Of a stretch of 64,000 nt of DNA, positions 29,501 through 64,000 are shown one piece after another. The notes under the pieces are model-generated. The model made no database searches. It saw nothing but the letters and a program-made list of their open reading frames with translations, and was not told the origin of the DNA. Within the stretch, counting starts at the first letter, position 1, and each line of letters opens with the position of its first letter. The DNA is from Haplodiscus bocki (Eukaryota). The position numbers and the translations under genes are program-made. The stretch spans positions 6,944,001-7,008,000 of the forward strand of contig OZ296649.1 in the NCBI GenBank assembly GCA_965655095.1, given 5' to 3'.

Positions 29501-30254
29501 TACAACGCCATAAATTTTTTGAAATATGTAAAACCGGGAGCAATATCCATGGTGAAGATTTGATTTTTTACTGTTCGTTTACGTTTAGCAGACATACCCG
29601 TAGCAATATTTGTCTGTATGGAAACATTATTAAAAAGTTTTGTATCTGTTTTTTCATCTGATCGATTGTATTGATCTTTGCAATTTTTAGAATAAATTCT
29701 GAAGTGGATTCAAAGGTACCTGGTTTAGTAGAATGACGACATGATTCATGTTCAGTATCACTTTCTGTGACTGATCCTTTTGTAGATTTGTTTGGTTTAA
29801 TCGTTGATTGTGTTCGAGTCTCGTGATCCAACCGTTTCATCTTTCTTTCAGTTTGCTATTTGAGAGCTTATTTTTCGTAGGCTCCAATAGGCAAGGTTAA
29901 ATCGTGAAATCTACTCCATTCAGAGGAGGGTAAAAGAATTCATTGTTATCCCGCGAAAAGCGGGATATTGCAATCACCTTCGTGTGTCTGTTTGTCTGTT
30001 TGTTTGTTTGTTTGTTAGCAGGATTTCTCATAAACTACTGGTCGGATTTTGACGAAATTTGGTGAGTAGGGAGGTAATGATCATAGGAAGACGGAGTTCA
30101 AAGTTGGGCGTGATCCGAATTGAAATCCGGATCTGAGATCCGGCTAAATGTTTCTCATGAACTACTGGTCGGATTTTTGGATCAGGATTTCAATCAGATC
30201 CAGGATAATAGTAATCTGACAATAGTAATCTGATAAGAGTAATCAGATGCGTAC

Positions 30255-30328
30255 GGCCCTCTAGCTCAGTCGGTAAGAGCATTGTCCTAAAAACGCGAGG
30301 GTTGAGAGTTCGAACCTCTGTGTGGCCA
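30255..30328 (+). tRNA. tRNA-Ile(AAT)-derived pseudo-tRNA, anticodon AAA (copy 1)
   Basis: 74 nt; A box TAGCTCAGTCGGTA, B box GTTCGAACC, T6 downstream; anticodon stem mismatch (ttgtc). Confidence 0.6.
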
Positions 30329-30396
30329 AAATTTTTTGTTAATTTGATAAAAATAATCTGATAATAGTAATCTGATAAGATTAATCAGATGCGTAC

Positions 30397-30470
30397 GGCC
30401 CTCTAGCTCAGTCGGTAAGAGCATTGTGCTAAAAACGCGACGGTCGAGAGTTCGAATCTCTGTGTGGTCA
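30397..30470 (+). tRNA. tRNA-Ile(AAT)-derived pseudo-tRNA, anticodon AAA (copy 2)
   Basis: Cloverleaf with GCTC/GAGC D stem, TTGTG-CTAAAAA-CGCGA anticodon arm, GTTCGAATC B box, T6 downstream. Confidence 0.62.
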
Positions 30471-30538
30471 AAATTTTTTGTTAAACTGATAATAGTAATC
30501 TGATAATAGTAATCTGATATTAGTAATCAGATAAGTAC

Positions 30539-30612
30539 GGACCTATACCTCAGTCGGTAAGAGCATTGTGCTAAAAACGCGAGGGTCGAGAGTTCGAAAC
30601 TCTGTGTGGCCA
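30539..30612 (+). tRNA. tRNA-derived pseudo-tRNA, anticodon AAA (copy 3)
   Basis: Same unit 142 bp downstream of copy 2; substitutions in the A box and acceptor stem. Confidence 0.55.
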
Positions 30613-30829
30613 AAATTTTTTGTTTGTCTGTTTATTTGTTTGTTTGTTTGTTAGCAGAATTTCTCAAAATAGGAGGTATTGTATATCAACGACTGGGTTA
30701 CGGTCCAGGATTTCATGTTGGATCCTGATAACAGTTATCCGGATATCCTGATTGTATCAGGATTTCAATCAGATCGAGGATAATAGTAATCTGACAATAG
30801 TAGTCTGATAAGAGTAATCACATTAGTAC

Positions 30830-30903
30830 GGCCCAATAGCTCAGTCGGTAAAAGCATTGTGCTAAAAACGCGACGGTCGAGAGTTCGAACCTCTGTGTGG
30901 GGA
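30830..30903 (+). tRNA. tRNA-derived pseudo-tRNA, anticodon AAA (copy 4)
   Basis: Same unit; 3' acceptor strand degenerate (tgtgggga). Confidence 0.5.
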
Positions 30904-30971
30904 AAAGATTTTGTTAATCTGATAATAGTAATCTTATAATAGTAATCTGATATTAGTAATCACATGCGTAC

Positions 30972-31045
30972 GGCCCTATAGCTCAGTCGGTAAGAGCATT
31001 GTGCTAAAAACGCGAGGGTCGACAGTTCGAAACTCTGTGTGTCCA
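30972..31045 (+). tRNA. tRNA-derived pseudo-tRNA, anticodon AAA (copy 5)
   Basis: Same unit; intact D and anticodon arms, T7 downstream. Confidence 0.55.
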
Positions 31046-31271
31046 AAATTTTTTTGTTTGTCTGTTTGTTTGTTTGTTCGTTTGTTTGTTTGTTAGCAGG
31101 ATTTCTCAAAATAGGAGGTATTGTATATCAACGACTGGGTTACGGTCCAGGATTTCATGTTGGATCCTGATAACAGTTATCCGGAGATCCTGATTGGATC
31201 AGGATTTCAATCATATCCAGCATAATAGTAATCTGACAATAGTAATCGGATAAGAGTAATCACACTAGTAC

Positions 31272-31345
31272 GGCTCAATAACTCAGTCGGTAAGAGCCTT
31301 GTGCTAAAAATGCGACGGTCGAGAGTTCGAACCTCTGTGTGGCCA
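31272..31345 (+). tRNA. tRNA-derived pseudo-tRNA, anticodon AAA (copy 6)
   Basis: Same unit with several substitutions. Confidence 0.5.
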
Positions 31346-31399
31346 AAAATTCTTGTTAATCTGATAATAGTAATCTGATATTAGTAATCAGATTAGTAC

Positions 31400-31473
31400 G
31401 GCCCTATAGCTCAGTCGGTAAGAGAATTGTGCTAAAAACGCTAGGGTCGAGAGTTCGAACCTCTGTGTGGCCA
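31400..31473 (+). tRNA. tRNA-derived pseudo-tRNA, anticodon AAA (copy 7)
   Basis: Same unit; intact A box and GTTCGAACC B box, T6 downstream. Confidence 0.55.
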
Positions 31474-31784
31474 AAATTTTTTGTTTGTCTGTTTGTTTGT
31501 TTGTTTGGCGAGGGAAAGATTAAGGGCTTTCGCGGGATCTGCGCTCTCCGAGTGCCATTTTCTAGTTTGATTCTGTAATGTTACAAATACATTTGTAACC
31601 ATTGCGAAATATAACAGCTCTTCTGAAGTCTTCGTTCAATGTGTCGAGTGGTGGTTCGAAATTTTCTTCATGTGTTACTTTTTCAGTTCAAATGGTATGT
31701 TTTCTGTTTGTTGAAGACGAAAAATAAAGGAAATTACCTGGATACCTTATGAAGTGTTATTCGGATACTCACTCAATGTTCCTA

Positions 31785-47806: not shown

Positions 47807-47973
47807 NNNNNNNNNNNNNNNNNNNNNNNNNNNNNNNNNNNNNNNNNNNNNNNNNNNNNNNNNNNNNNNNNNNNNNNNNNNNNNNNNNNNNNNNNNNNNN
47901 NNNNNNNNNNNNNNNNNNNNNNNNNNNNNNNNNNNNNNNNNNNNNNNNNNNNNNNNNNNNNNNNNNNNNNNNN
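47807..47973. other. Assembly gap (167 N)
   Basis: Run of N. Confidence 1.
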
Positions 47974-51321: not shown

Positions 51322-51708
51322 CTAGTGCTGTTCAATATGGAAGTCACCCAAACAATAGGGTTGGCCTTTGGTGTATGCGTCCACAGCGTGAGGTCCACAA
51401 CAATGGAAAATAGCGCGAGCCAAGGGGTCATCGGTAGCAACAGGTTGTGGATCAGTCTGCGTGGATTGATTGGCCATTCGGGACGGACTGATGAATAGTT
51501 GTGATGGTGTCCTGAGGAAACTTCGATACGTGGTATGATTTGTTCGTTTGAGGACGACCGGGCCAGGTGGAGATGTAATCTTAAGTATCCGGTATTGATT
51601 GTTATCAAGGAGGTGGACCACATCTCCAACGCGAACATTGTGAGTTCGCCCATCACATGTTGTCAAAGGAGCAGAAGGAAGATTAAAAAAAAGCAAAGGG
51701 AGACCCAC
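51322..51708 (-). CDS. Accessory ORF D (128 codons): small beta-barrel-like segment, STQTD motif, C-terminal Cys/His cluster
   Basis: VRVGDVVHLLDNNQYRILKI...PVVLKR; NQSTQTDP; FHCCGPH...YCLGDFHIEQH; stop falls just before the PPT. No ATG start. Confidence 0.45.
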   Translation of the reverse strand: MGLPLLFFNLPSAPLTTCDGRTHNVRVGDVVHLLDNNQYRILKITSPPGPVVLKRTNHTTYRSFLRTPSQLFISPSRMANQSTQTDPQPVATDDPLARAIFHCCGPHAVDAYTKGQPYCLGDFHIEQH

Positions 51709-51867
51709 AACGGTCTCTCAGTGAGGAAGCTGCTAAGCTTGCAAAAAGAGTTCGCGGATGAACTTAATGAATTTGAAAATTAATAATATAAACAATTGAG
51801 TTAGTATTATAATATTGAAGGGCTATAAGAGCCAGTTAGTAAAATAAGAACACATAGTTATCAGTTT

Positions 51868-52301
51868 TCATTCTTCGAGAGGGATGGTTGAAGTTGGAGG
51901 TGAAAGTTGACGGCGACGTCGAACAGGGGGAGTTGGTAAAACTGGTACAGAGGGGTTTGAGGCTGGTTGTAGAATGGAAAGTGGAAGCGCGGAGGCAAGG
52001 ACGCGGAAGTAGAGATCGGGTTGGGCACAAGTGGGGCATTTATTTTATTGATGGGAAAGTAAAAAGTTAAGACAACGGGGACAAGCACGGTGGGGCACAT
52101 GGTTGAGAGTGGAGGATGATGAGCTCGCTGGGAAGAAAGGAGCCGTGGCACACGGGACATTTGTGGTAGAGGGGACCAGGGTGGTTGCAAGGGATTGGGG
52201 TGTCGTCATACAGCCAGGCGTTCTCGGTATCAGCAGGGTTAAAAGGGCGGCGAATGAGGTAGTTGGAGCCATTAGTGTAGGATCGGACTGGTTGTGAATC
52301 G
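51868..52301 (-). pseudogene. Accessory ORF C: RING-like finger (C2H2C4 ligand order) plus Pro/Arg-rich tail; one frameshift, one stop
   Basis: KCPVCHGSFLPSELIILHS/NHVPHRACPRCLNFLLSHQ*NKCPTCAQPDL...PTPPVRRRRQLSPPTSTIPLEE*; halves appear in track ORFs 52067..52327 and 52045..52272. Confidence 0.7.
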
Positions 52302-52461
52302 CTAAAACTCCAAACAGTGAAAGACAATTATTGGTTCAATATGTAAATTCAAATGTGAAACAGCCTTAAAATGCTACTATGTGGAGGAAAATTGTATGTC
52401 GTATAGAACATAAAAGCAAAAGTGGTATAAAAGTAGTTGAGTTTGCAAAAATGATATAATG

Positions 52462-52891
52462 TTAGCCGGGGCGACCATTTGCAGGAGGTACAGGGACGGG
52501 TATTACCCGTTCTTCTCTTTCGACGGCATTTTTTCGAAAGTTAACGGGGTCGCGATACAAATTGAGGAGGGCACGGCGGAGTATTTGATATCGAACACGA
52601 TCCCAGCGATTTAAGTTGGGGAGAGAATCATTATGATACAAAAAAAGAACAAATTCACTCCAGCGAGGATCTTTATAGGGGAAGTGAACTGCGCTTTGAT
52701 CGTTAAGGGTTAGTTGAATAGTGCCCTCCGGAAAGATCATCAGGTGCGTGATCGGGTAACGGATGTCATTGAGCACACAACTCCAAGTGAAGTCCAATGA
52801 GACTGCCTTCCATGCGTGTGAACCGTCACTAAAATTAAAATGGTTTCGAGGGACGCGGCGACGCATCACGAAGAGAGCTTTACGCAAAAAG
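52462..52891 (-). CDS. Accessory ORF B (~135-143 aa), unknown function
   Basis: Open, GC-richer, globular-looking frame MRRRVPRNHFNFSDG...PKDPRWSEFVLFLY-like...PPANGRPG; preceded by CACTGTTTTAG|C. Confidence 0.55.
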
Positions 52892-53043
52892 CTAAAACAG
52901 TGTATATAATGTATTCGCGAGCTATTTAAAGTTATATAAAATATAGTGGATGGATTAACGTAATATAGTGTTTTGAGTTTAACGAATTTCAAGTTTAACG
53001 AATAGCTTATGGAGTTTAGCGAAGGTTTTTTTATAGAAGCCAT

Positions 53044-53401
53044 TACAAAAGGGTCGATGTAAGGGATGGGACGGGAACCACCGCAAGAAGGACAGATGGG
53101 GTTGGTAAGATAGTAGAGGGTGTAGGAGCACGGTTTGCAGACGGGAATAGAATTAGGGCCAGTGAGACAGTTGGGATTAAAGCAATGAGGTACGGCTTAT
53201 TCGAGATTGCATTCTGAACAAAGGGGAATGCCAAGAGCTTGAAACAGATCAACTGGAGAACGGCAAGCAGGGCACGTAGGGGTATTGTACGTGATGAGGG
53301 AGCTACAACAGGAACGGCAGATCCGATGAGGCGCATCATTCGGGGCGTGAAGGGTGACTAGAACGGCTGCGGGCTCCAGGCAGATTAGGCAGTGGGAAGA
53401 G
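53044..53401 (-). pseudogene. Accessory ORF A: two tandem RING-like zinc fingers; one in-frame TAA (53199-53197)
   Basis: Manual translation from 53400: SSHCLICLEPAAVLVTLHAPNDAPHRICRSCCSSLITYNTPTCPACRSPVDLFQALGIPLCSECNLE*AVPHCFNPNCLTGPNSIPVCKPCSYTLYYLTNPICPSCGGSRPIPYIDPFV. Not in the ORF track because it has no start codon. Confidence 0.78.
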
Positions 53402-53549
53402 CTTAAATGGACTAAGCCGATTACAGAAAGAGGGGCACGATAGTGCCAAACAGGGGCTCCGAAGAGGCGTTTACTTTTTGGATACTTACTTATTTTACGT
53501 GGTGAACTTTGTACATTTAAACGCTATGATACATTACTTGGGGCGAAAC

Positions 53550-55929
53550 TTAGGCTGATGTAGTTTGTGTGGTTTCGACGTGAGGTACCGGAGCTGGAGT
53601 GAAGGTTGTCAGAACCAACGGAGGTGTAGTACGGATGGTTCTGGTTGATGCAGTGACGTCCGGATATAGTTTTTCTTCATCTTCGGCGGAGTAAGAGAAC
53701 GGTGCGTTAGCTTCGGTCTTCAGTAAAGTTTCTTTCGCAAGAGCGCGTAGTGCAGTGAATTCCTCACGAGTCAAAATTAAAAATGAAGAGTCTGAGTCTG
53801 TTTCAATGTCGTTCGTGACATGAATAAATTGGCCAGATTTATTCTTGAAGAAACGACGTGGAGCACAGCAATGTGCACGTGCTTGTCTGTGAAAGAGTGG
53901 AAAGTTAAGTATAAACAAAAATAAAGAAAGTACGATTGATCCGCCTGCGATTAAGAATGAAGTTTTCGCCGGTACAAACTTGTCAAGTGCTGCTTCTGTT
54001 GCAGGATTGAGAGACGTATAACGTGCTACAATTGGTTCAGTCAATTTTTGCAAAGTTTCTGGGTCCATTCGTCTAACGTCTGGAATTTCAGTCAGTTCCA
54101 ATTGTACGCTCTCAAGAATTGATTTCCGGGCGGCACCGATTGAGTAACTTGGAAAGTTAAGTCGATCGAAAGGGACATTCTGAAAAACTTGATTCAAGGG
54201 CGGTGTCAGTTTGATTGTTGCAATGTACGGTTCCGGAGTCGTTTTACATGCATCCATATCGGGTGACAAAGCAAGATCGCCTTGATTAATGTAAAGAGTA
54301 CTTTCACAACTTGGTCGAAGGACGCACGCCTGACAATCGATTGTGGACAAACTGAGTCCATTTGATCGGCTATCGTTCTTAATGTCGATTGTAGGGTGGC
54401 GAGAGATGAGGTGGTAGACGCCGTTTGCCAAGTAGATTGCCTGTGGGGCTTCTGGAAGAAGGACAGAGGAAACGGGGCAGTTTCGGAGTGCTGGTATGTC
54501 TTGATTAAAATACAACGACGTGAGACAGAGAAGCGTTTCATCAGTAGTAGTCGAAAAACCTTTGCGGCACAGTTTGATTCGATTACTGCCCGTGCATTGT
54601 TGTAGCGTAGACGCGGCTAACTCTGCAAAATTGGTATTGTCTGTTGCAATCGCGACGTAGGGTTTCGGAAATTGGTAAACTGATGCCGTCTTGCCGTCGT
54701 CGTTGGGTTGCTATAGAGGTTCGGCTTGGAAAACATTGTAGGTTGCGGATTTGGAGTTCATTGGAATGCCGAGAACAAAAGAAATGCCTTTAGGCAACAT
54801 CGTGACTTCTAAGACGATTTGCAATTCATAATAGATGGCTTCGATTCCCGATGTTATAGCAGGCGTTAGTTTGCTACCTTTCCGAAATTCTTCAGCGGCG
54901 AGTTCTTGCACGATTTTGGCGAGCTGTGTTGGAAGCAGGAATTGTGGTGTGATGTGTCCCGTAGCAAGAGATGAGATTATTGAGAAGAAATTGTTTCTAT
55001 ATGCGTAAAATGCTGCACGAAATGCTTTAAAGTGTGTGTACAATGTGCCAATTTGTGACAAATACAGTTGTGAGGACTGAAGAAAGTGACGGTAAGCACT
55101 TTCGAATTGATAACATCGGAACGCATCTTCGAGACTGTATATACGCTCGGGCATATACGAGATACGTAGGTAGGTGTCATTTTTAATTCGTTCAACACTT
55201 TCCTGAGTTAGACGAATTTCGTCTCGAAGTAAGGCAAGTTTTTCGTTGTTCTTATCTTGGACCATCTGAAATGCCTGTTGTTGTGTCTTTTGTTTTTTGG
55301 TCACTTGAGCGAGTTCTCGTTCCAATTCTTCAGTAGTATCACAAAGAATAAAAATGGAGAGTGCTTTGCATGCTACATCTTTAATTGGTTCTACCAGGAT
55401 GAATGCTGTACCCGCGGCGAGGGCTGTGACAGCACCAATGAGCCGTCGTGTTCTATTGTGAGGTTCTTTCTCAGCAGTTGAGCGTCTTTGTCGAGAGGTT
55501 CGCGGGGATGATTCTGGTGGAAAGAAGGATTTTGCAATGGCACTCAGAGTGTTGAGTTCGGATTGTGCTTCACTAATTTCAGTCTTAAGATGGTTGTACA
55601 TGTTTTCCATTTGTTGTAGAACCGGTATATGAGACTCGTTGAACGTATTGTTACCACACCCTGGCTGTGTGACGCGGTGTTGCAAGTGTGAGAGCTTCTC
55701 ATTGCTTTCGAGAACGATAACACGCACGCTGTGAATGTTAACATCTGGGAGCGTCGGGAAAGGAGAGAATAGTCGGACTTGGCTCTCACTTTCGGAAGTC
55801 ACAACTTGGTATTTAAAGATGAAAGCGGCTCCTCGCTCAAATTCCGGTAGCTGTTGTTTATTGACACTCGAATACTGTATGGTGTTCGCAATGCAAAGTA
55901 CTGTCCAGTTGTATAGCAGCGTTGTGATC
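53550..55929 (-). pseudogene. env: env, class-I F-type fusion glycoprotein (copy 1, ~790 codons, one in-frame TAG at 54711)
   Basis: Signal-like ITTLLYNWTVLCIA; furin sites RQRR and RTRR; fusion peptide LIGAVTALAAGTAFIL; heptad-like helix; Cys-rich region; TM SFLIAGGSIVLSLFLFILNF; cytoplasmic tail. Confidence 0.85.
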
Positions 55930-55946
55930 CTGAAAGGAGACTTGCG

Positions 55947-58900
55947 TTATTTCTGATGATGAGTTTTGCGTTTTCCTGCAGGAGTTTTACTAAATTTCGT
56001 TCCTGACTGTTTTTGTGGTTTTCGCTCTGGAGAGTTATAACTTGTAACTATATCAGGAAGATACGACGTCAAAAGCGGTTGTGCTTTTCTTTGTGAGGAC
56101 GTGTTAGGTCGTAATTGCATGTTAGACGTGTTTGCAGGAGGTGTTCTCCTAAGACTTCTAGCTGCGGCCTCCACAATTTCCGTGACGTTGTCACCTGGTG
56201 ATTGTCTTTCGTGGCGAAAGTCATTCTCTGGAAAAAGAGGTTGTATCTCGATTTGAGGAGTAGTCGGTGATTGTATTTCAACGTCATTTCTTGAGTGTGG
56301 ACTAGGTTGTTCTAGTGTTGGTGATGGCAATAACACAGGAGGTGATCTCGTTACTTCACGTCTCGTCGGTGCAGACGAAATAAGCGGCGTAATTCTACTT
56401 GGTGCAATTGATGCAGTTGTTCGTCCTACGGTAGGTATTGGTGTGAAAATGCTAGAAGGTGCTGGTAGAAAACTAAGACAATCATCGTGATTAAGTGTTC
56501 CATCTATATGTTTGCGTGCGTCTGTTATGTTTTGAGTTGACTGAAAAATTCTTGGTCTATTTCTCGTAGGTATATTGGACGTTGGCGGAGGTTCGAAAAA
56601 TGGTTTTAGTCTCTCGTAATGTACAACTTGTTGTTTTGCAGAGTTTTCTTTTTTAATTCTCAATGTGACATCGTTCAAACATTTTTCAATGATATATGGT
56701 CCCTTCCACGGGCTTGAGAATTTAGAAGTCGTTCCTACAGCAATGACTGGATGGTAAAGTAAAACGTTTTGTCCTTCTTTGTATATTGGGCCGTGAACCT
56801 TTTTATTATAGATAGCATTTCGGCGTTTCTGTTTTTCGTTTAAGTTGCGTCGGACTAACTAAAAAGCTCGTTGGAATGCTTGTTGTTTATTGTGCACAAA
56901 TTCGTGAATGTCTGTAGTTACATTTTCTTGTGGGTTAGGATACATGCAATCTAAAGGTAAACTCAATTCTTGTCCAAAAACTAGGAACTGCGGTGTGTAT
57001 CCTGTTGATTCATGTACCGAAGATCGATACGCCATCATTACGTAAGGCAATTGTTGTGACCAGTTGCTTTGTTCTTCATTTACGCATTTTGCTAACATGT
57101 TTTATAGAGTTTTATTCATTCTTTCAATCACTACATTTGACTGAGGATGAAAAGGTGTTGTTCGAGTTTTGTCCATTTCGAGAAGTTGCAATAATTGTTC
57201 AAAAAGTTTTGACTCGAAGTTTCGTCCCGGATCACTATGAAGGCTGTGTGGACAACCAAAGCGACTGATCCAATGATCAACTAAAGCGTTTGCAGTTGTG
57301 ACAGCTGTTTGATCTGGTAATGGTATTGCTTCGTACCATTTTGTGAAATGATCGCCAATTACTAGTATGTGTTTATTTCCATTTGACATTGGCAAAGGTC
57401 CCATGAAATCAATTCCAATGTGATGAAAAGGATAACTGGCTTGCCATTCTATCAATGAATGATGATATTTCTTAGGTGGTCCCGAACGTTTTTGACATTC
57501 CGGGCATCGACTGACAAACAATTTTGTGTCTTCCTGCAGTCCTGGCCAGTAGAATCTTTGTTTTATTTTCTCTGAGGTTTTAGCAACTCCTAAGTGTCCG
57601 GCTGTTGGTGATGAATGACATGCTGATAGAATTTCTTGCGTCATTGATGGTGGTACTATTTGTTGTAATACCACTTGGTTATCTGCAGTTTCGAATTTTC
57701 TGCACAAAATTCCATCGAGGAGTTGTAGACTTTTCAATTGATTGTTGAGTTGCCATGCTAGCCTAGGGAGTCCTTGTAATTCTTGTGATGTGGGCACTTC
57801 TCCTTTTTCGATCCATTCAATCAGTTTAGACAATGCCTCATCTTGTCGTTGTGCTTGACCTAGCGCAGAGCGTACCGGTGTCTCAGTCAGTTTCTGTGAT
57901 TGTTCGTTTTTGTGTTGATCGTAGACTGTGATAGTTAAGTTCGACTGTGCACAAATTTCTCTGATAAGGCGTTCAACTTTATGCCATTCTAACCGATCAA
58001 GTCCACAACCGGCTTTTGGCATACTAATTTCAGTGACTTTATGTTTATTTGCGTGCTTTGTCATTGCTTCTAGTGATTGTCTCAAACTATCGTACATTGG
58101 TTTTTGGAAAAAGAGTTTCTTCGTAACTAAGTGGTAGATGAAACTATCATCTACTTGTTGAACAAAAAGCGGAGAGTTGGTACTTTCAGGAAAATTGTAT
58201 GGAAACTTGCGGTTGAAACTTCGGGCAATTCCCGCGGACATTCTGAAGTCTGATGATATGCAGTGTGCTAGTGAGTCTTTTGATTCAAAAAGATTACCAT
58301 TTTTATGAATGAGTTCAAAAAATTTTGTTTTCGCTGGTTCATCTGGTTTTTCTGTGCTCGAAGAAGTAGTTACTTGGTTAACAATTGGTATTCGTGAAAG
58401 TTCGTCGGCGTGACCAATACTTTTTCCTGGCCTATGTTGCACCTCATAATCAAATGCTGCTAACTTTTCGAGCCATCTTGCTGTTAATCCGTCTGGATCT
58501 TTAAAGTTATGTAACCACTGCAGTGCACGATGATCAGTAACAATTTTGAATTTCCTTCCGAGAAGGTAATGTTTAAAATGTCGAGTGAAAGTTACAATGG
58601 CTAAGAGTTCTCGTTTCGTTGCAGAATAATTTGTTTGAGACTTTGAAAATGCCTTAGTTGCGTAGCAAATAGCTCGCTGTTTTCCGTCCTGCACTTGGGA
58701 TAGTACTGCTCCCATTGCTGTTAAACTTGCCTCAGTGTACAAAATAAATGGTTCTTTCACGTCCGGGAAGGCTAGGATTGGTGTAGAAGACAAATGTTTC
58801 TTTAAACTTTCAAATGCTTCGTGCGTTTCTTCTGTCCAAGTAAAGGAGCTTTTAGTTTCACTAGCTTTATGCAATGGTCGAGCTCTCATAGCAAAGTTTT

Positions 58901-59747
58901 TAATATACCGTCTGTAATATGAACAAAGTCCCAAAAACGACTTGACATCTGTTTGATTTTGTGGTACCGGAAAGTTTTGAACTGCTTCAACTTTTTCTGG
59001 ATCGGCTTCCAATCCATTTTTGCTGATTACGTGTCCTAAGAACTGAACTTTTGTTTGGAAAAAGGCGCATTTTGTCGGACTGATTTTTAGATTCGCCTCG
59101 CGAAATCTTTGGAAAACTTGTTGCAGTCTTTTAATATGCTCCTCTGGTGTTTTCGAAAAGATGATACAGTCATCTAAATAGGGTACTGTAATGTTCCACG
59201 TGAGTCCAACAAGCACGTGTTCCATTAGACTTTGAAATGTGTTCGGACTGCCCGTTAGTCCCATTGGCATGCGTAGCGATTTAAATGATCCGAAAGGAGT
59301 ACTAAACGCTGTATAGTTTTGGCTTTGGGGTTCCATTGGTAATTGGTAAAATCCCCATGACATGTCTATTGTTGTGAAGTAAGCACTTCCTTGAAGTGTA
59401 TCAAAAATTTCTTCAATTGACGGTATCGGCCAACAAGACTTAATTGTTTGTTCATTTAGTTTTCTGTAGTCTATTACTAATCGCAGTTTTCCATTCTTCT
59501 TCGGAACTAGCATTGCTGGTGCACTATAAGGGCTATGACATGGTGTGATCAATTCTTTGTTCATGAAAGCATCTATTTTCTCTTTCGAATCATCTTTGTA
59601 ATGCACTGGCATTCTTCTATTCGGTAATTTTATTGGTTGTGAGCCTGGCTTCACATCTATTCTATGACTAGTTGCATCGCACTTTCAGAGGTCCCAATGA
59701 TTGATTGAGAAGATATCACTATAGTCATCTATTAAGTTTCTAAAATC
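55947..59747 (-). pseudogene. pol: pol (copy 1): RT - RNase H - macrodomain - integrase - GPY/F - Pro/Ser/Thr tail; one frame with in-frame stops
   Basis: SPYSAP, LRLVIDYRKLN, MPMGL, YLDD; RNase H LYTEAS/ELLAI/TDH/HADELSR; HHCC (H..GHLG..CPEC), IDFMGP, SDPG, IERMNKTL; WKGPY. Stops at 57102-57104, 56859-56861 and one just upstream of RT. Confidence 0.95.
57921..58322 (-). other. TARG1/OARD1-class macrodomain embedded in pol
   Basis: GNLF..DSLAHCISSDFRMSAGIA..F; IYHLVTKK; KP.YDSLRQSLEAM; ISMPKAGCGLDRLEW; ITVY, matching the recalled human OARD1 motifs throughout. Confidence 0.92.
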
Positions 59748-61801
59748 TGCCTGTCTGTGAAAGAGTGGAAAGTTAAGTGAAAACAAAAATACAGAAAGTA
59801 AAATTTGATCCGCCTGCGATTAAGAATGAAGTTTTCGCCGGTACAAACTTGTCAAGTGCTGCTTCTGTTGCAGGATTGAGAGACGTATAATGTGCTACAA
59901 TTGGTTCAGTCAATTTTTGCAAAGTTTCTGGGTTCATTCGTCTAACGTCTGGAATTTCAGTCAGTTCCAATTGTACGCTCTCAAGAATTGATTTCCGGGC
60001 GGCACCGATTGAGTAACTTGGAAAGTTAAGTGGATCGAAAGGGACATTCTGAAAAACTTGATTCAAGGGCGGTGCCAGTTTGATTGTCGCAATGTACGGT
60101 TCCGGAGTCGTTTTACATGCATCCATATCGGGTGACAAAACAAGATCGCCTTGATTAATGTAAAGAGTACTTTCACAACTTGGTCGAAGGACGCACGCCT
60201 GTCAATCGATTGTAGACAAACTGAGTCCATTTGATCGGCTATCGTTCTTGATGTCGATTGTAGGGTGGCGAGAGATGAGGTGATAGACGCCGTTTGCCAA
60301 GTAGATTGCCTGTGGGGCTTCTGGAAGAAGGACAGAGGAAACGGGGCAGTTTCGGAGTGCTGGTATGTCTTGATTAAAATACAACGACGTGAGACAGAGA
60401 AGCGTTTCATCAATAGTAGTCGAAAAATCTTTGCGGCACAGTTTGATTCGATTACTGCCCGCGCATTGTTGTAGCGTAGACGCGGCTAACTCTGCAAAAT
60501 TGGTATTGTCTGTTGCAATCGTGACGTAGGGTTTCGGAAATTGGTAAACTGATGCCGTCTTGCTGTCGTCGTTGGGTTGGTCGTTGGGAGGTTCGGCTTT
60601 GAAAACATTGTAGGTTGCGGATTTGGAGTTCATTGGAATGCCGAGAACAAAAGAAATGCCTTTAGGCAACATCGTGACTTCTCAGACGATTTGCAATTCA
60701 TAATAGATGGCTTCGAATCCCGATGGTATAGCAGGCGTTAGTTTGCTACCTTTCCGAACTTCTTCAGCGGCGAGTTCTTGCACGATTTTGGCGAGCTGTG
60801 TTGGAAGCAGGAATTGTGGTGTGATGTGTCCCGTAGCAAGAGATGAGATTATTGAGAAGAAATTGTTTCTATATGCGTAAAATGCTGCACGAAATGCTTT
60901 AAAGTGTGTGTACAATGTGCCAATTTGTGACAAATACAGTTGTGAGGCCTGAAGAGGGTGATGGTAAGCACTTTCGAATTGATAACATCGAAACGCATCT
61001 TCGAGACTGTATATACGCTCGAGCATATACGAGATACGTAGGTAGGTGTCGTTTTTAATTCGTTCAACACTTTCCTGAGTTAGACGAATTTCGTCTCGAA
61101 GTAAGGCAAGTTTTTCGTTGTTCTTATTTTGGACCATCTGAAATGCCTGTTGTTGTGTCTTTTGTTTTTTGGTCACTTGAGCGAGTTCTCGTTCCAATTC
61201 TTCAGTAGAATCACAAAGATTAAAAATGGAGAGTGCATTGCATGCTACATCTTTAATTGGTTCTCCCAGGATGAATCCTGTACCTGCGGCGAGGGCTGCG
61301 ACAGCACCAATGAGCCGTCGTGTTCTATTGTGAGGTTCTTCCTCAGCAGTTGAGCGTCTTTGTCGAGAGGTTCGTGGGGATGATGCTGGTGGAAAGAAGG
61401 ATTTTGCAATGGCACTCAGAGTGTTGAGTTCGGATTGTGCTTCACTAATTTCAGTCTTAAGATGGTTGTACATGTTTTCCATTTGTTGTAGAACCGGTAT
61501 ATGAGACTCGTTGAACGTATTGTTACCACACCCTGGCTGTGTGACGCGGTGTTGCAAGTGTGAGAGCTTCTCATTGCTTTCGAGAACGATAACACGCACG
61601 CTGTGAATGTTAACATCTGGGAGCGTCGGGAAAGGAGAGAATAGTCGGACTTGGCTCTCACTTTCGGAAGTCACAACTTGGTATTTAAAGATGAAAGCGG
61701 CTCCTCGCTCAAATTCCGGTAGCTATTGTTTATTGACACTCGAATACTGTATGGTGTTCGCAATGCAAAGTACTGTCCAGTTGTATAGCAGCGTTGTGAT
61801 C
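59748..61801 (-). pseudogene. env: env (copy 2), stops and frameshifts, truncated just after TM by the duplication junction
   Basis: Near-identical to copy 1 at offset ~5872; track ORFs 60682..61674, 60202..60672, 59773..60138. Confidence 0.88.
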
Positions 61802-61818
61802 CTGAAAGGAGACTTGCG

Positions 61819-64000
61819 TTATTTCTGATGATGAGTTTTGCGTTTTCCTGCAGGAGTTTTACTAAATTTCGTTCCTGACTGTTTTTGTGGTTTTCGCTCT
61901 GGAGAGTTATAACTTGTAACTATATCAGGAAGATACGACGTCAAAAGCGGTTGTGCTTTTCTTTGTGAGGACGTGTTAGGTCGTAATTGCATGTTAGACG
62001 TGTTTGCAGGAGGTGTTCTCCTAAGACTTCTAGCTGCGGCCTCCACAATTTCCGTGACGTTGTCACCTGGTGATTGTCTTTCGTGGCGAAAGTCATTCTC
62101 TGGAAAAAGAGGTTGTATCCCGATTTGAGGAGTAGTCGGTGATTGTATTACAACGTCGTTTCTTGTATGTGGGCTAGGTTGTTCTAGTGTTAGTGATGGC
62201 GAGAAGACAGGAGGTTATCTCGTGACTTCACGTCTTGTCGGTACGGACGAAATAAGCGGCGTAATTCTACTTGGTGTAATTGATGCAGTTGTTCGTCCTA
62301 AGGTAGGTATTGGTGTGAAAATGCTAGAAGGTGCTGGTAGAAAACTAAGACAATCATCGTGATTAAGTGTTCCATCTATATTTTTGCGTGCGTCTGTTAT
62401 GTTTTGAGTTGACTGAAAACTTCTTGGTTTATTTCTCGTGGGTACATTGGACGTTGGCGGAGGTTCGAAAAATGGTTTTAGTCTCTCGTAATGTACAACT
62501 TGTTGTTTTGCAGAGTTTTCTTTTTTAATTCTCAATGTGACATCGTTCAAACATTTTTCAATGATATATGGTCCCTTCCACGGGCTTGAGAATTTAGAAG
62601 TCGTTCCTACAGCAATGACTGGATGGTAAAGTAAAACGTTTTGTCCTTCTTTGTATATTGGGCCGTGAACCTTTTTATTATAGATAGCATTTCGGCGTTT
62701 CTGTTTTTCGTTTAAGTTGCGTCGGACTAACTAAAAAGCTCGTTGGAATGCTTGTTGTTTATTGTGCACAAATTCGTGAATGTCTGTAGTTACATTTTCT
62801 TGTGGGTTAGGATACATGCAATCTAAAGGTAAACTCAATTCTTGTCCAAAAACTAGGAACTGCGGTGTGTATCCTGTTGATTCATGTACCGAAGATCGAT
62901 ACGCCATCATTACGTAAGGCAATTGTTGTGACCAGTTGCTTTGTTCTTCATTTACGCATTTTGCTAACATGTTTTGTAGAGTTTTATTCATTTTTTCAAT
63001 CACTGCATTTGACTGAGGATGAAAAGGTGTTGTTCGAGTTTTGTCCATTTCGAGAAGTTGCAATAATTGTTCAAAAAGTTTTGACTCGAAGTTTCGTCCC
63101 TGATCACTATGAAGGCTGTGTGGACAACCAAAGCGACTGATCCAATGATCAACTAAAGCGTTTGCAGTTGTGACAGCTGTTTGATCTGGTAATGGTATTG
63201 CTTCGTACCATTTTGTGAAATGATCGCCAATTACTAGTATGTGTTTATTTCCATTTGACATTGGCAAAGGTCCCATGAAATCAATTCCAATGTGATGAAA
63301 AGGATAACTGGCTTGCCATTCTATCAATGAATGATGATATTTCTTAGGTGGTCCCGAACGTTTTTGACATTCCGGGCATCGACTGACAAACAATTTTGTG
63401 TCTTCCTGCAGTCCTGGCCAGTAGAATCTTTGTTTTATTTTCTCTGAGGTTTTAGCAACTCCTAAGTGTCCGGCTGTTGGTGATGAATGACATGCTGATA
63501 GAATTTCTTGCGTCATTGATGGTGGTACTATTTGTTGTAATACCACTTGGTTATCTGCAGTTTCGAATTTTCTGCACAAAATTCCATCGAGGAGTTGTAG
63601 ACTTTTCAATTGATTGTTGAGTTGCCATGCTAGCCTAGGGAGTCCTTGTAATTCTTGTGATGTGGGCACTTTTCCTTTTTCGATCCATTCAATCAGTTTA
63701 GACAGTGCCTCATCTTGTCGTTGTGCTTGACCTAGCGCAGAGCGTACCGGTGTCTCAGTCAGTTTCTGTGATTGTTCGTCTTTGTGTTGATCATAGACTG
63801 TGATAGTTAAGTTCGACTGTGCACAAGTTTCTCTGATAAGGCGTTCAACTTTATGCCATTCTAACCGATCAAGTCCACAACCGGCTTTTGGCATACTAAT
63901 TTCAGTGACTTTATGTTTATTTGCGTGCTTTGTCATTGCTTCTAGTGATTGTCGCAAACTATCGTACAATGGTTTTTGGAAAAAGCGTTACTTCGTAACT
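61819..64000 (-). pseudogene. pol: pol (copy 2, partial): macrodomain C-half - integrase - GPY/F - tail
   Basis: ORF 62731..63969 with IDFMGP, SDQG, IEKMNKTL; stops at 63988-63990, 62731-62733 and 62215-62217. Confidence 0.93.

Follow-up and report, generated by a model that had tools for sequence, protein, structure and literature searches.

A TARG1/OARD1-class macrodomain lying between the RNase H and the integrase within the pol gene of an env-carrying Ty3/gypsy retrotransposon from Haplodiscus bocki

Introduction

A domain resembling the ADP-ribosylhydrolase TARG1 lies inside the pol gene of a retrotransposon in the genome of Haplodiscus bocki, which raises the question of whether it is a working part of the element and, if so, what it would do there. 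The window, that is, the whole stretch of DNA analyzed, comprises 64,000 nucleotides (contig OZ296649.1, positions 6,944,001 to 7,008,000 of the forward strand). An earlier note on this DNA had described a complete, in-frame TARG1/OARD1-class macrodomain between the RNase H and integrase of a Gypsy pol, with Lys and Asp residues corresponding to the catalytic K84 and D125 of human TARG1. It had proposed that the domain, packaged along with RT and integrase, could take ADP-ribose off proteins or cDNA of the element.

Element organization

An LTR retroelement is present in the last 12 kb of the window as two partial copies, arranged head to tail on the minus strand (Table 1). Copy B reads from a pre-RT junction near 59750 through reverse transcriptase, RNase H, macrodomain, integrase and a C-terminal tail to a stop codon at 55947-49. 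Beyond this stop an env-like gene extends to 53550, and is followed by the RING ORF and further Cys-rich ORFs. Regions 59748-64000 and 53880-58128 are 97.9% alike, with 84 substitutions in 4249 aligned bases; the duplication unit is ~5.87 kb and its junction lies over a short shared stretch. At this junction copy A's env runs into copy B's pre-RT region, and copy B is therefore without gag and protease. Segmental duplication, a template switch or an assembly artefact may have produced the junction. Both copies are dead, because each has in-frame stops, of which one in copy A falls inside the macrodomain.

Table 1. Position of features of the two retroelement copies in the window
Feature	Position	Strand	Remarks
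TARG1/OARD1-class macrodomain (copy B), complete, in frame in pol	57921..58322	-	assigned on sequence and model
Lys codon aligned to TARG1 catalytic Lys84	58119..58121	-	
Asp codon aligned to TARG1 catalytic Asp125	57996..57998	-	
Reverse transcriptase core	59025..59507	-	Pfam RVT_1, E 5e-34
RNase H	58389..58838	-	end aligns with C-terminus of Ty3 RT crystal construct; ~17 codons upstream of macrodomain
Bridge / integrase N-terminal extension	57675..57863	-	32% identity to same region of P0015
Integrase zinc finger and catalytic core	57144..57656	-	in-frame stops after it: 57102-04, 56859-61
C-terminal domain of integrase (Integrase_p58_C, 56601-56702) and long Pro/Ser/Thr-rich pol tail	55947..56858	-	
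Env-like gene, same frame, behind pol stop	53550..55946	-	internal stop 54711-13
RING-finger ORF	53197..53523	-	starts 27 nt past env stop; sub-cutoff match to zf-C3HC4_3 (E 2e-5)
Cys-rich ORF, in frame behind RING ORF	52462..53196	-	weak double-zinc-ribbon match, E 0.02
Copy A, tandem duplicate of 53880-58128	59748..64000	-	macrodomain C-terminal half, integrase, env cut at TM region
Copy A macrodomain, C-terminal half	63793-64000	-	stop at 63988-90
Duplication junction	59748..59753	-	copy A env (at TM region) joined to copy B pre-RT region

Among solved structures the RT-RNase H region was closest to Ty3 RT (E 9e-83), followed by the caulimovirus-type enzyme (1e-50) and retroviral RTs (<=1e-34). 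The order RT, RNase H, integrase is that of Ty3/gypsy (Metaviridae) pol genes, and a protease lies upstream in family member P0003, which belongs to a cluster with 923 members. No LTR pair or convincing polypurine tract was found in the window, the 5' part being either outside it or displaced at the duplication junction. The element is a Ty3/gypsy retrotransposon that carries an env.

The alignment of RT-RNase H with Ty3 reaches residue 1011 of Gag-Pol and that of integrase starts at 1073, leaving a gap of 62 aa. Because the corresponding spacing in the window pol is 227 aa, the macrodomain and the two linkers that flank it, both poorly conserved in the family, amount to an insertion of ~165 aa. 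In the crystal construct of Ty3 RT, three residues follow the terminal motif of RNase H. The macrodomain is thus downstream of the presumed end of RT, as judged by comparison with Ty3, and would most simply stay on integrase; with cleavage sites placed purely by analogy, it probably travels with that enzyme.

Env, RING and neighboring sequences

The env-like gene contains basic furin-type sites, a hydrophobic fusion-peptide-like stretch (55383-55439) and a TM helix (53901-53957). Pfam and PDB sequence searches gave no match to it; an Atlas search returned Baculo_F and Fusion_gly clusters at 0.93-0.94 with a low recognition score, so far a lead to an F-type fusogen. One RING (53197..53523) is supported, and as no LTR was found it is a candidate member of the element only. 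Several short Cys/His-rich open frames lie behind env at 51322-53523 on the minus strand, of which only the first has a RING match. Their strand is strongly C-rich, with a GC skew of 0.31 on the plus strand at 52001-54000. These frames, for which no bounding LTR was found, may be accessory genes of the element.

Other features of the window include an assembly gap (a run of N) at 47807-47973, ~3 kb beyond the apparent 3' region of the element, and a tandem array at 4168-25778 of ~21 units of ~1067 bp which are 83-99% alike and fall into two sub-blocks. Each of these units has a minus-strand open frame of up to 263-316 aa without a Pfam match. Nested tandem repeats with a unit of ~142 bp, 85-92% alike, were located at 30177-31507.

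Fold and active site of the macrodomain

Comparison of the window macrodomain with human TARG1 gave an E value of 7e-31 and 44% identity. Single-sequence AlphaFold reached a pLDDT of 50 and an alignment-based model was used instead, with a pLDDT of 94 and a TM score of 0.89 to TARG1. The model has a minimal macro fold with a six-stranded sheet and no N- or C-terminal extensions, and in the fold search TARG1 was the nearest solved structure. Equivalents of TARG1 His32, Cys33, Ser35, Thr83, Lys84, Gly123, Leu124 and Asp125 are present, the catalytic Lys84/Asp125 dyad among them. A set of 133 homologue domains from outside the family defines 32 conserved sites, and the window domain agrees with it at 29 of these. 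Judged by its sequence and predicted structure, it is a macrodomain of the TARG1/OARD1 (ALC1-like) class. The earlier description of it as complete and in frame was borne out, as were the alignment of both catalytic residues and, by domain matches, the position between RNase H and integrase.

At a few sites next to the pocket the family differs from typical homologues. The Asp of the G-D-L-F motif is replaced by Asn in 47 of 56 family copies, compared with Asp in 104 and Asn in 18 of the 133 outside domains. In the diphosphate loop, a position that is Ile or Leu in every one of the 133 outside domains is Ala in the window copy, which has private changes at other sites as well. The Asn and Ala substitutions could lower binding or catalysis; in macrodomains in general, Asp-to-Asn in G-D-L-F would more probably weaken adenine binding than catalysis.

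TARG1/OARD1/C6orf130 (PDB 4j5r, 2lgr) is a standalone cellular gene, whereas the window domain is part of a retroelement polyprotein and differs from the human protein in the loop after helix 1 and in carrying Asn and Ala at two sites that are conserved elsewhere. It is not a cellular OARD1 orthologue, being embedded in pol and placed outside the vertebrate OARD1 clade of a weakly resolved tree. Nor is it a DarG, a protein recognized by a DarT operon, a C-terminal toxin-binding domain and the lack of an acidic dyad residue. Identity to the DarG antitoxin macrodomain (PDB 5m31, 5m3i) is only 19-23%; DarG is without the acidic partner of the dyad, according to the available text of PMC7050489, and the window element is without a toxin partner.

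Alphavirus nsP3 and coronavirus Mac1 likewise place a macrodomain within a replication polyprotein, and their counter-PARP role is established, but they are MacroD-type and only 9-17% identical to the window domain. The TARG1-like domains of arthropod RNA viruses are nearer (24-42% identity), with predicted structures only. No Gypsy pol or RNase H was present among the best 50 matches listed in the BFVD and wide-PDB fold searches, a result without bearing on the "pseudo-RNase H" idea discussed below, and Atlas gave no usable match for the RNase H-macrodomain-bridge region.

Conservation in the family

A full HMMER search together with three word-based ones retrieved 276 proteins, and 107 of them are at least 68% identical to the window pol in alignment. 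Twelve of these copies extend over RNase H, macrodomain and bridge/integrase. A further 31 reach from RNase H into the macrodomain, 25 from the macrodomain into bridge/integrase, and 39 cover the macrodomain only, so that in 68 of 107 it is contiguous with RNase H and/or bridge/integrase; most copies are decayed. As the macrodomain was the bait for all of them, copies without it could not appear among the 107. The macrodomain is a trait of an abundant family and not of the window copies alone. Absence from other copies, which the earlier note had named as evidence against its reading, is therefore not what was found. The dyad Lys is kept in 83 of 91 copies and the Asp in 70 of 77, both being kept in 58 of the 68 copies covering both sites.

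Selection was assessed per column by comparing residues seen once with residues common to several copies, which separates decay from evolution of the active lineage. Of the variants common to at least six copies, 3 fell on the 32 TARG1-conserved sites and 26 on the 57 variable ones (p 0.005 by Fisher's test; 0.03 with a threshold of 4 copies and 0.016 with 10), while singletons were evenly spread (73 and 126, respectively). Over 133 sites, outside conservation was negatively correlated with shared variation (Spearman rho -0.30, p 0.0004) and uncorrelated with singleton variation (+0.05, p 0.58). The test works at the protein level on copies fetched with a macrodomain query, and the number of shared variants can be raised by mutations that recur or by copies that were duplicated. 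This pattern points to purifying selection while the family replicated, followed by neutral decay; the earlier note had regarded neutral evolution as damaging to its proposal, and shared variants instead avoid the TARG1-conserved sites. The signal cannot tell folding from catalysis, and constraint on the fold is not proof of constraint on catalysis.

In several copies the macrodomain is slightly less conserved than RT and integrase (in P0003, for example, 0.90 versus 0.95-0.97), and in sister family P0029 it is 48% identical to that of the window versus 84% for RNase H. Between window copies A and B the macrodomain shows 2 synonymous and 3 non-synonymous differences in 71 codons, too few for dN/dS. 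For the same pair, env has an omega of 0.97 with four stop differences, and integrase 0 synonymous and 3 non-synonymous differences.

Recurrence in other lineages

From 2831 hits, 150 were listed, and the 100 with at least 165 aa were scanned with Pfam. Nine of the 100 carry RT, RNase H, integrase or protease domains, and Lys and Asp are present in all nine. The macrodomain comes right after RNase H in P0029, P0074, P0090 and P0129, whose RNase H is 84, 50, 44 and 34% identical to that of the window, respectively. It is C-terminal to integrase in P0015, behind an integrase zinc finger in P0062 and P0082 (both gene models look incomplete), behind a protease in P0108 and behind a weak RT match in P0121. 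The full RNase H-macrodomain-integrase order was seen only in the window family, because the remaining fragments stop short of it. The fusion itself recurs, since in distant Gypsy-like pols a domain of this class is found behind RNase H, behind integrase or behind protease.

The tree of 152 domains was poorly resolved. The family falls outside the vertebrate OARD1 clade in it, loosely grouped with P0029, P0088, P0035 and P0108, and the other retroelement domains are scattered. The 11 LTR-linked domains need 7 changes on this tree. In an AU test on 45 of the 152 rows, leaving out the long-branch, decayed P0119 and near-duplicate family rows, a single clade was not rejected (p 0.276), and multiple independent captures were thus not demonstrable.

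Several further contexts were noted. P0035 and P0108 form a second retroelement family, with a related macrodomain after protease and not after RNase H. In P0121 the RT ahead of the macrodomain is divergent, and in P0148 the macrodomain precedes NADAR and AAA_30 helicase domains. The macrodomain-bearing protein P0128 has an N-terminal Cys-rich finger and, as we take it, resembles a non-LTR ORF1. P0128, P0121 and P0148 are possible captures by other mobile elements. Fusions of other kinds among the 100 longer hits comprised four DNA ligase III BRCT proteins and one PNKP (together P0040, P0072, P0073, P0132 and P0109), two NADAR proteins and one picorna-like polyprotein. The last, P0130, has 3401 aa with helicase and RdRP and an N-terminal TARG1-type macrodomain with intact dyad. 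TARG1-like domains also occur in Kadipiro virus VP8 and in virga-, negev- and flavi-like viruses, all RNA viruses, and TARG1-like genes were found in 21 phage records, among them H1-H15 from Lactobacillus, Fusobacterium, Bacillus G and Escherichia phages (27-37% identity).

Virus-borne macrodomains as such are already known. The earlier note had seen the novelty of this locus in the combination with env and RINGs; one RING and a lead to an F-type env remain of that combination, and the novelty lies instead in the fusion itself and in its recurrence in unrelated Gypsy lineages. Repeat databases or automatic domain annotation may already flag such fusions.

Relation to errantiviruses

The "ancient errantiviruses" of Chary and Hayashi (PMC13524379) have the same RT-RNase H-bridge-integrase order as the window element, followed by an F-like env of which the env-like gene in the window is a possible counterpart. 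In those elements the bridge is made of "mini" or "pseudo-RNase H" domains after RNase H, and in the available portions of that paper, which surveys the RNase H-integrase bridge of 1512 errantiviruses, a macrodomain is never named. The window bridge probably is the "mini" domain of those authors. As described in the same portions, "pseudo-RNase H" sits in the RNase H-integrase slot of nearly all insect errantiviruses and has five core strands, of which the second and third have changed places with each other when compared with RNase H. The table includes layouts of the kinds RNase H-pseudo-mini and RNase H-pseudo-pseudo (PMC13524379).

Minus its first strand, the model of the window macrodomain reads strand-strand-strand-helix-strand-helix-strand. 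The sheet order of TARG1, we assume, would give exactly the strand swap of pseudo-RNase H. An intact macrodomain directly follows RNase H in P0074 and P0090, and their RNase H is presumably of the insect-errantivirus kind. By analogy, a TARG1-class hydrolase might be an unrecognized recurrent module of animal Ty3/gypsy Pol, and the insect "pseudo-RNase H" a degenerate macrodomain rather than a duplicated RNase H, a possibility that we put forward tentatively and with more doubt than conviction. Against it, the HHpred analysis of POL mentions no macrodomain in the sections available of the preprint of PMC13524379.

In searches of the open-licence literature, macrodomains of LTR elements were found only for fish endogenous retroviruses and none for Gypsy pol. 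Some teleost epsilon-like endogenous retroviruses carry macro domain ORFs (PMC4977317, citing Basta et al. 2009); these too are LTR retroelements with a macrodomain, but they belong to the Retroviridae and the domains are in additional ORFs, as far as the excerpt of PMC4977317 goes. Many viral genomes have TARG1-like homologues, few with all essential residues, according to a passage of PMC4245714. The accessible parts of the reviews PMC7729036, PMC8120803, PMC10221186 and PMC4695847 contain no mention of retrotransposon macrodomains.

Proposed function

TARG1 removes ADP-ribose from Glu/Asp, from O-acyl esters and from nucleic-acid ends, phosphate ends included (PMC7050489, in part), as well as from thymidine, an activity lost in K84A (PMC8501950, in part). 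On balance we lean towards a role as an eraser, in which the hydrolase would strip host ADP-ribose and so protect the particle or integration complex from host PARPs. In this scheme a TARG1-class ADP-ribosylhydrolase would have been captured into the stretch of pol that links the end of RNase H to the N-terminal extension of integrase, and would be translated and packaged with Pol. If protease cuts at a Ty3-like RT end, the macrodomain would remain attached to integrase at its N-terminus, or would be set free in the particle by a second cut; borne by integrase, it would enter the nucleus with the cDNA. The Lys/Asp dyad would remove PARP-laid ADP-ribose from Glu/Asp of particle proteins or, alternatively, from ends or bases of element RNA or cDNA, allowing reverse transcription, nuclear entry and integration to proceed. 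Like the macrodomains of RNA viruses, it would serve as an accessory enzyme of counter-defence, with the difference that it arrives as part of the replication complex. A host PARP acting on a Gypsy element was not found in the literature searched.

The hydrolase might instead aid integration, an integrase-bound enzyme clearing ADP-ribose caps or PARP1/2 marks from cDNA ends and single-strand gaps so that the host can ligate them. The reversal by TARG1 of ADP-ribose on nucleic-acid phosphate ends, as given in part of PMC7050489, would suit this idea, as would a macrodomain that probably stays with integrase. The four cellular fusions to DNA ligase III BRCT proteins and the one to PNKP, both nick-repair enzymes, point the same way. 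We nevertheless consider it unlikely, as the same class occurs in RNA viruses without a DNA stage, lies away from integrase in P0108 (after protease), and is lacking in Ty3; most Gypsy elements integrate without a macrodomain.

Quite unlikely, too, is a reader function in which the macrodomain would bind ADP-ribose and, as chromodomains do, anchor the integration complex at damage sites or at chromatin that is ADP-ribosylated. Both residues of the dyad, Lys and Asp, are retained in the window family and in all nine retroelement-linked domains, and the Asn of G-D-L-F would more probably affect adenine binding than catalysis. The family-wide departures of the pocket speak for a reader. ALC1-like macrodomains include readers (in the text available of PMC7050489), and the macrodomain of P0015, C-terminal to integrase, occupies what the available portions of PMC13524379 describe as the chromodomain slot.

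It is very improbable that the domain is a passenger which goes back to one capture of a host TARG1 cDNA by a permissive linker and is kept only because it must fold and stay in frame. Catalytic residues that are presumably dispensable for folding are kept across sister families only 40-48% identical and across pols with an RNase H identity of 34-50%. In favor of a passenger, the window copies are pseudogenes, selection on folding would also spare conserved sites, and the bridge from RNase H to integrase varies in structure among Ty3/gypsy elements (PMC13524379, in part).

Significance

Macrodomains are a standard marker of PARP-virus conflict. That this one was kept with its working residues while the element multiplied suggests that hosts use ADP-ribose tags against such elements, which carry their own eraser; the implication would be an ADP-ribosylation of retrotransposon proteins or nucleic acids by the host, and an answer to it by the elements. 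The domain is small, soluble and assayable, and would allow one to ask what is ADP-ribosylated in retrotransposition, a question that is open outside mammalian L1 and retroviruses. Were "pseudo-RNase H" a macrodomain, a widespread unexplained domain of insect errantivirus Pol would be re-identified, and ADP-ribosylation would be an old and general battleground of animal LTR elements, testable in Drosophila gypsy and ZAM.
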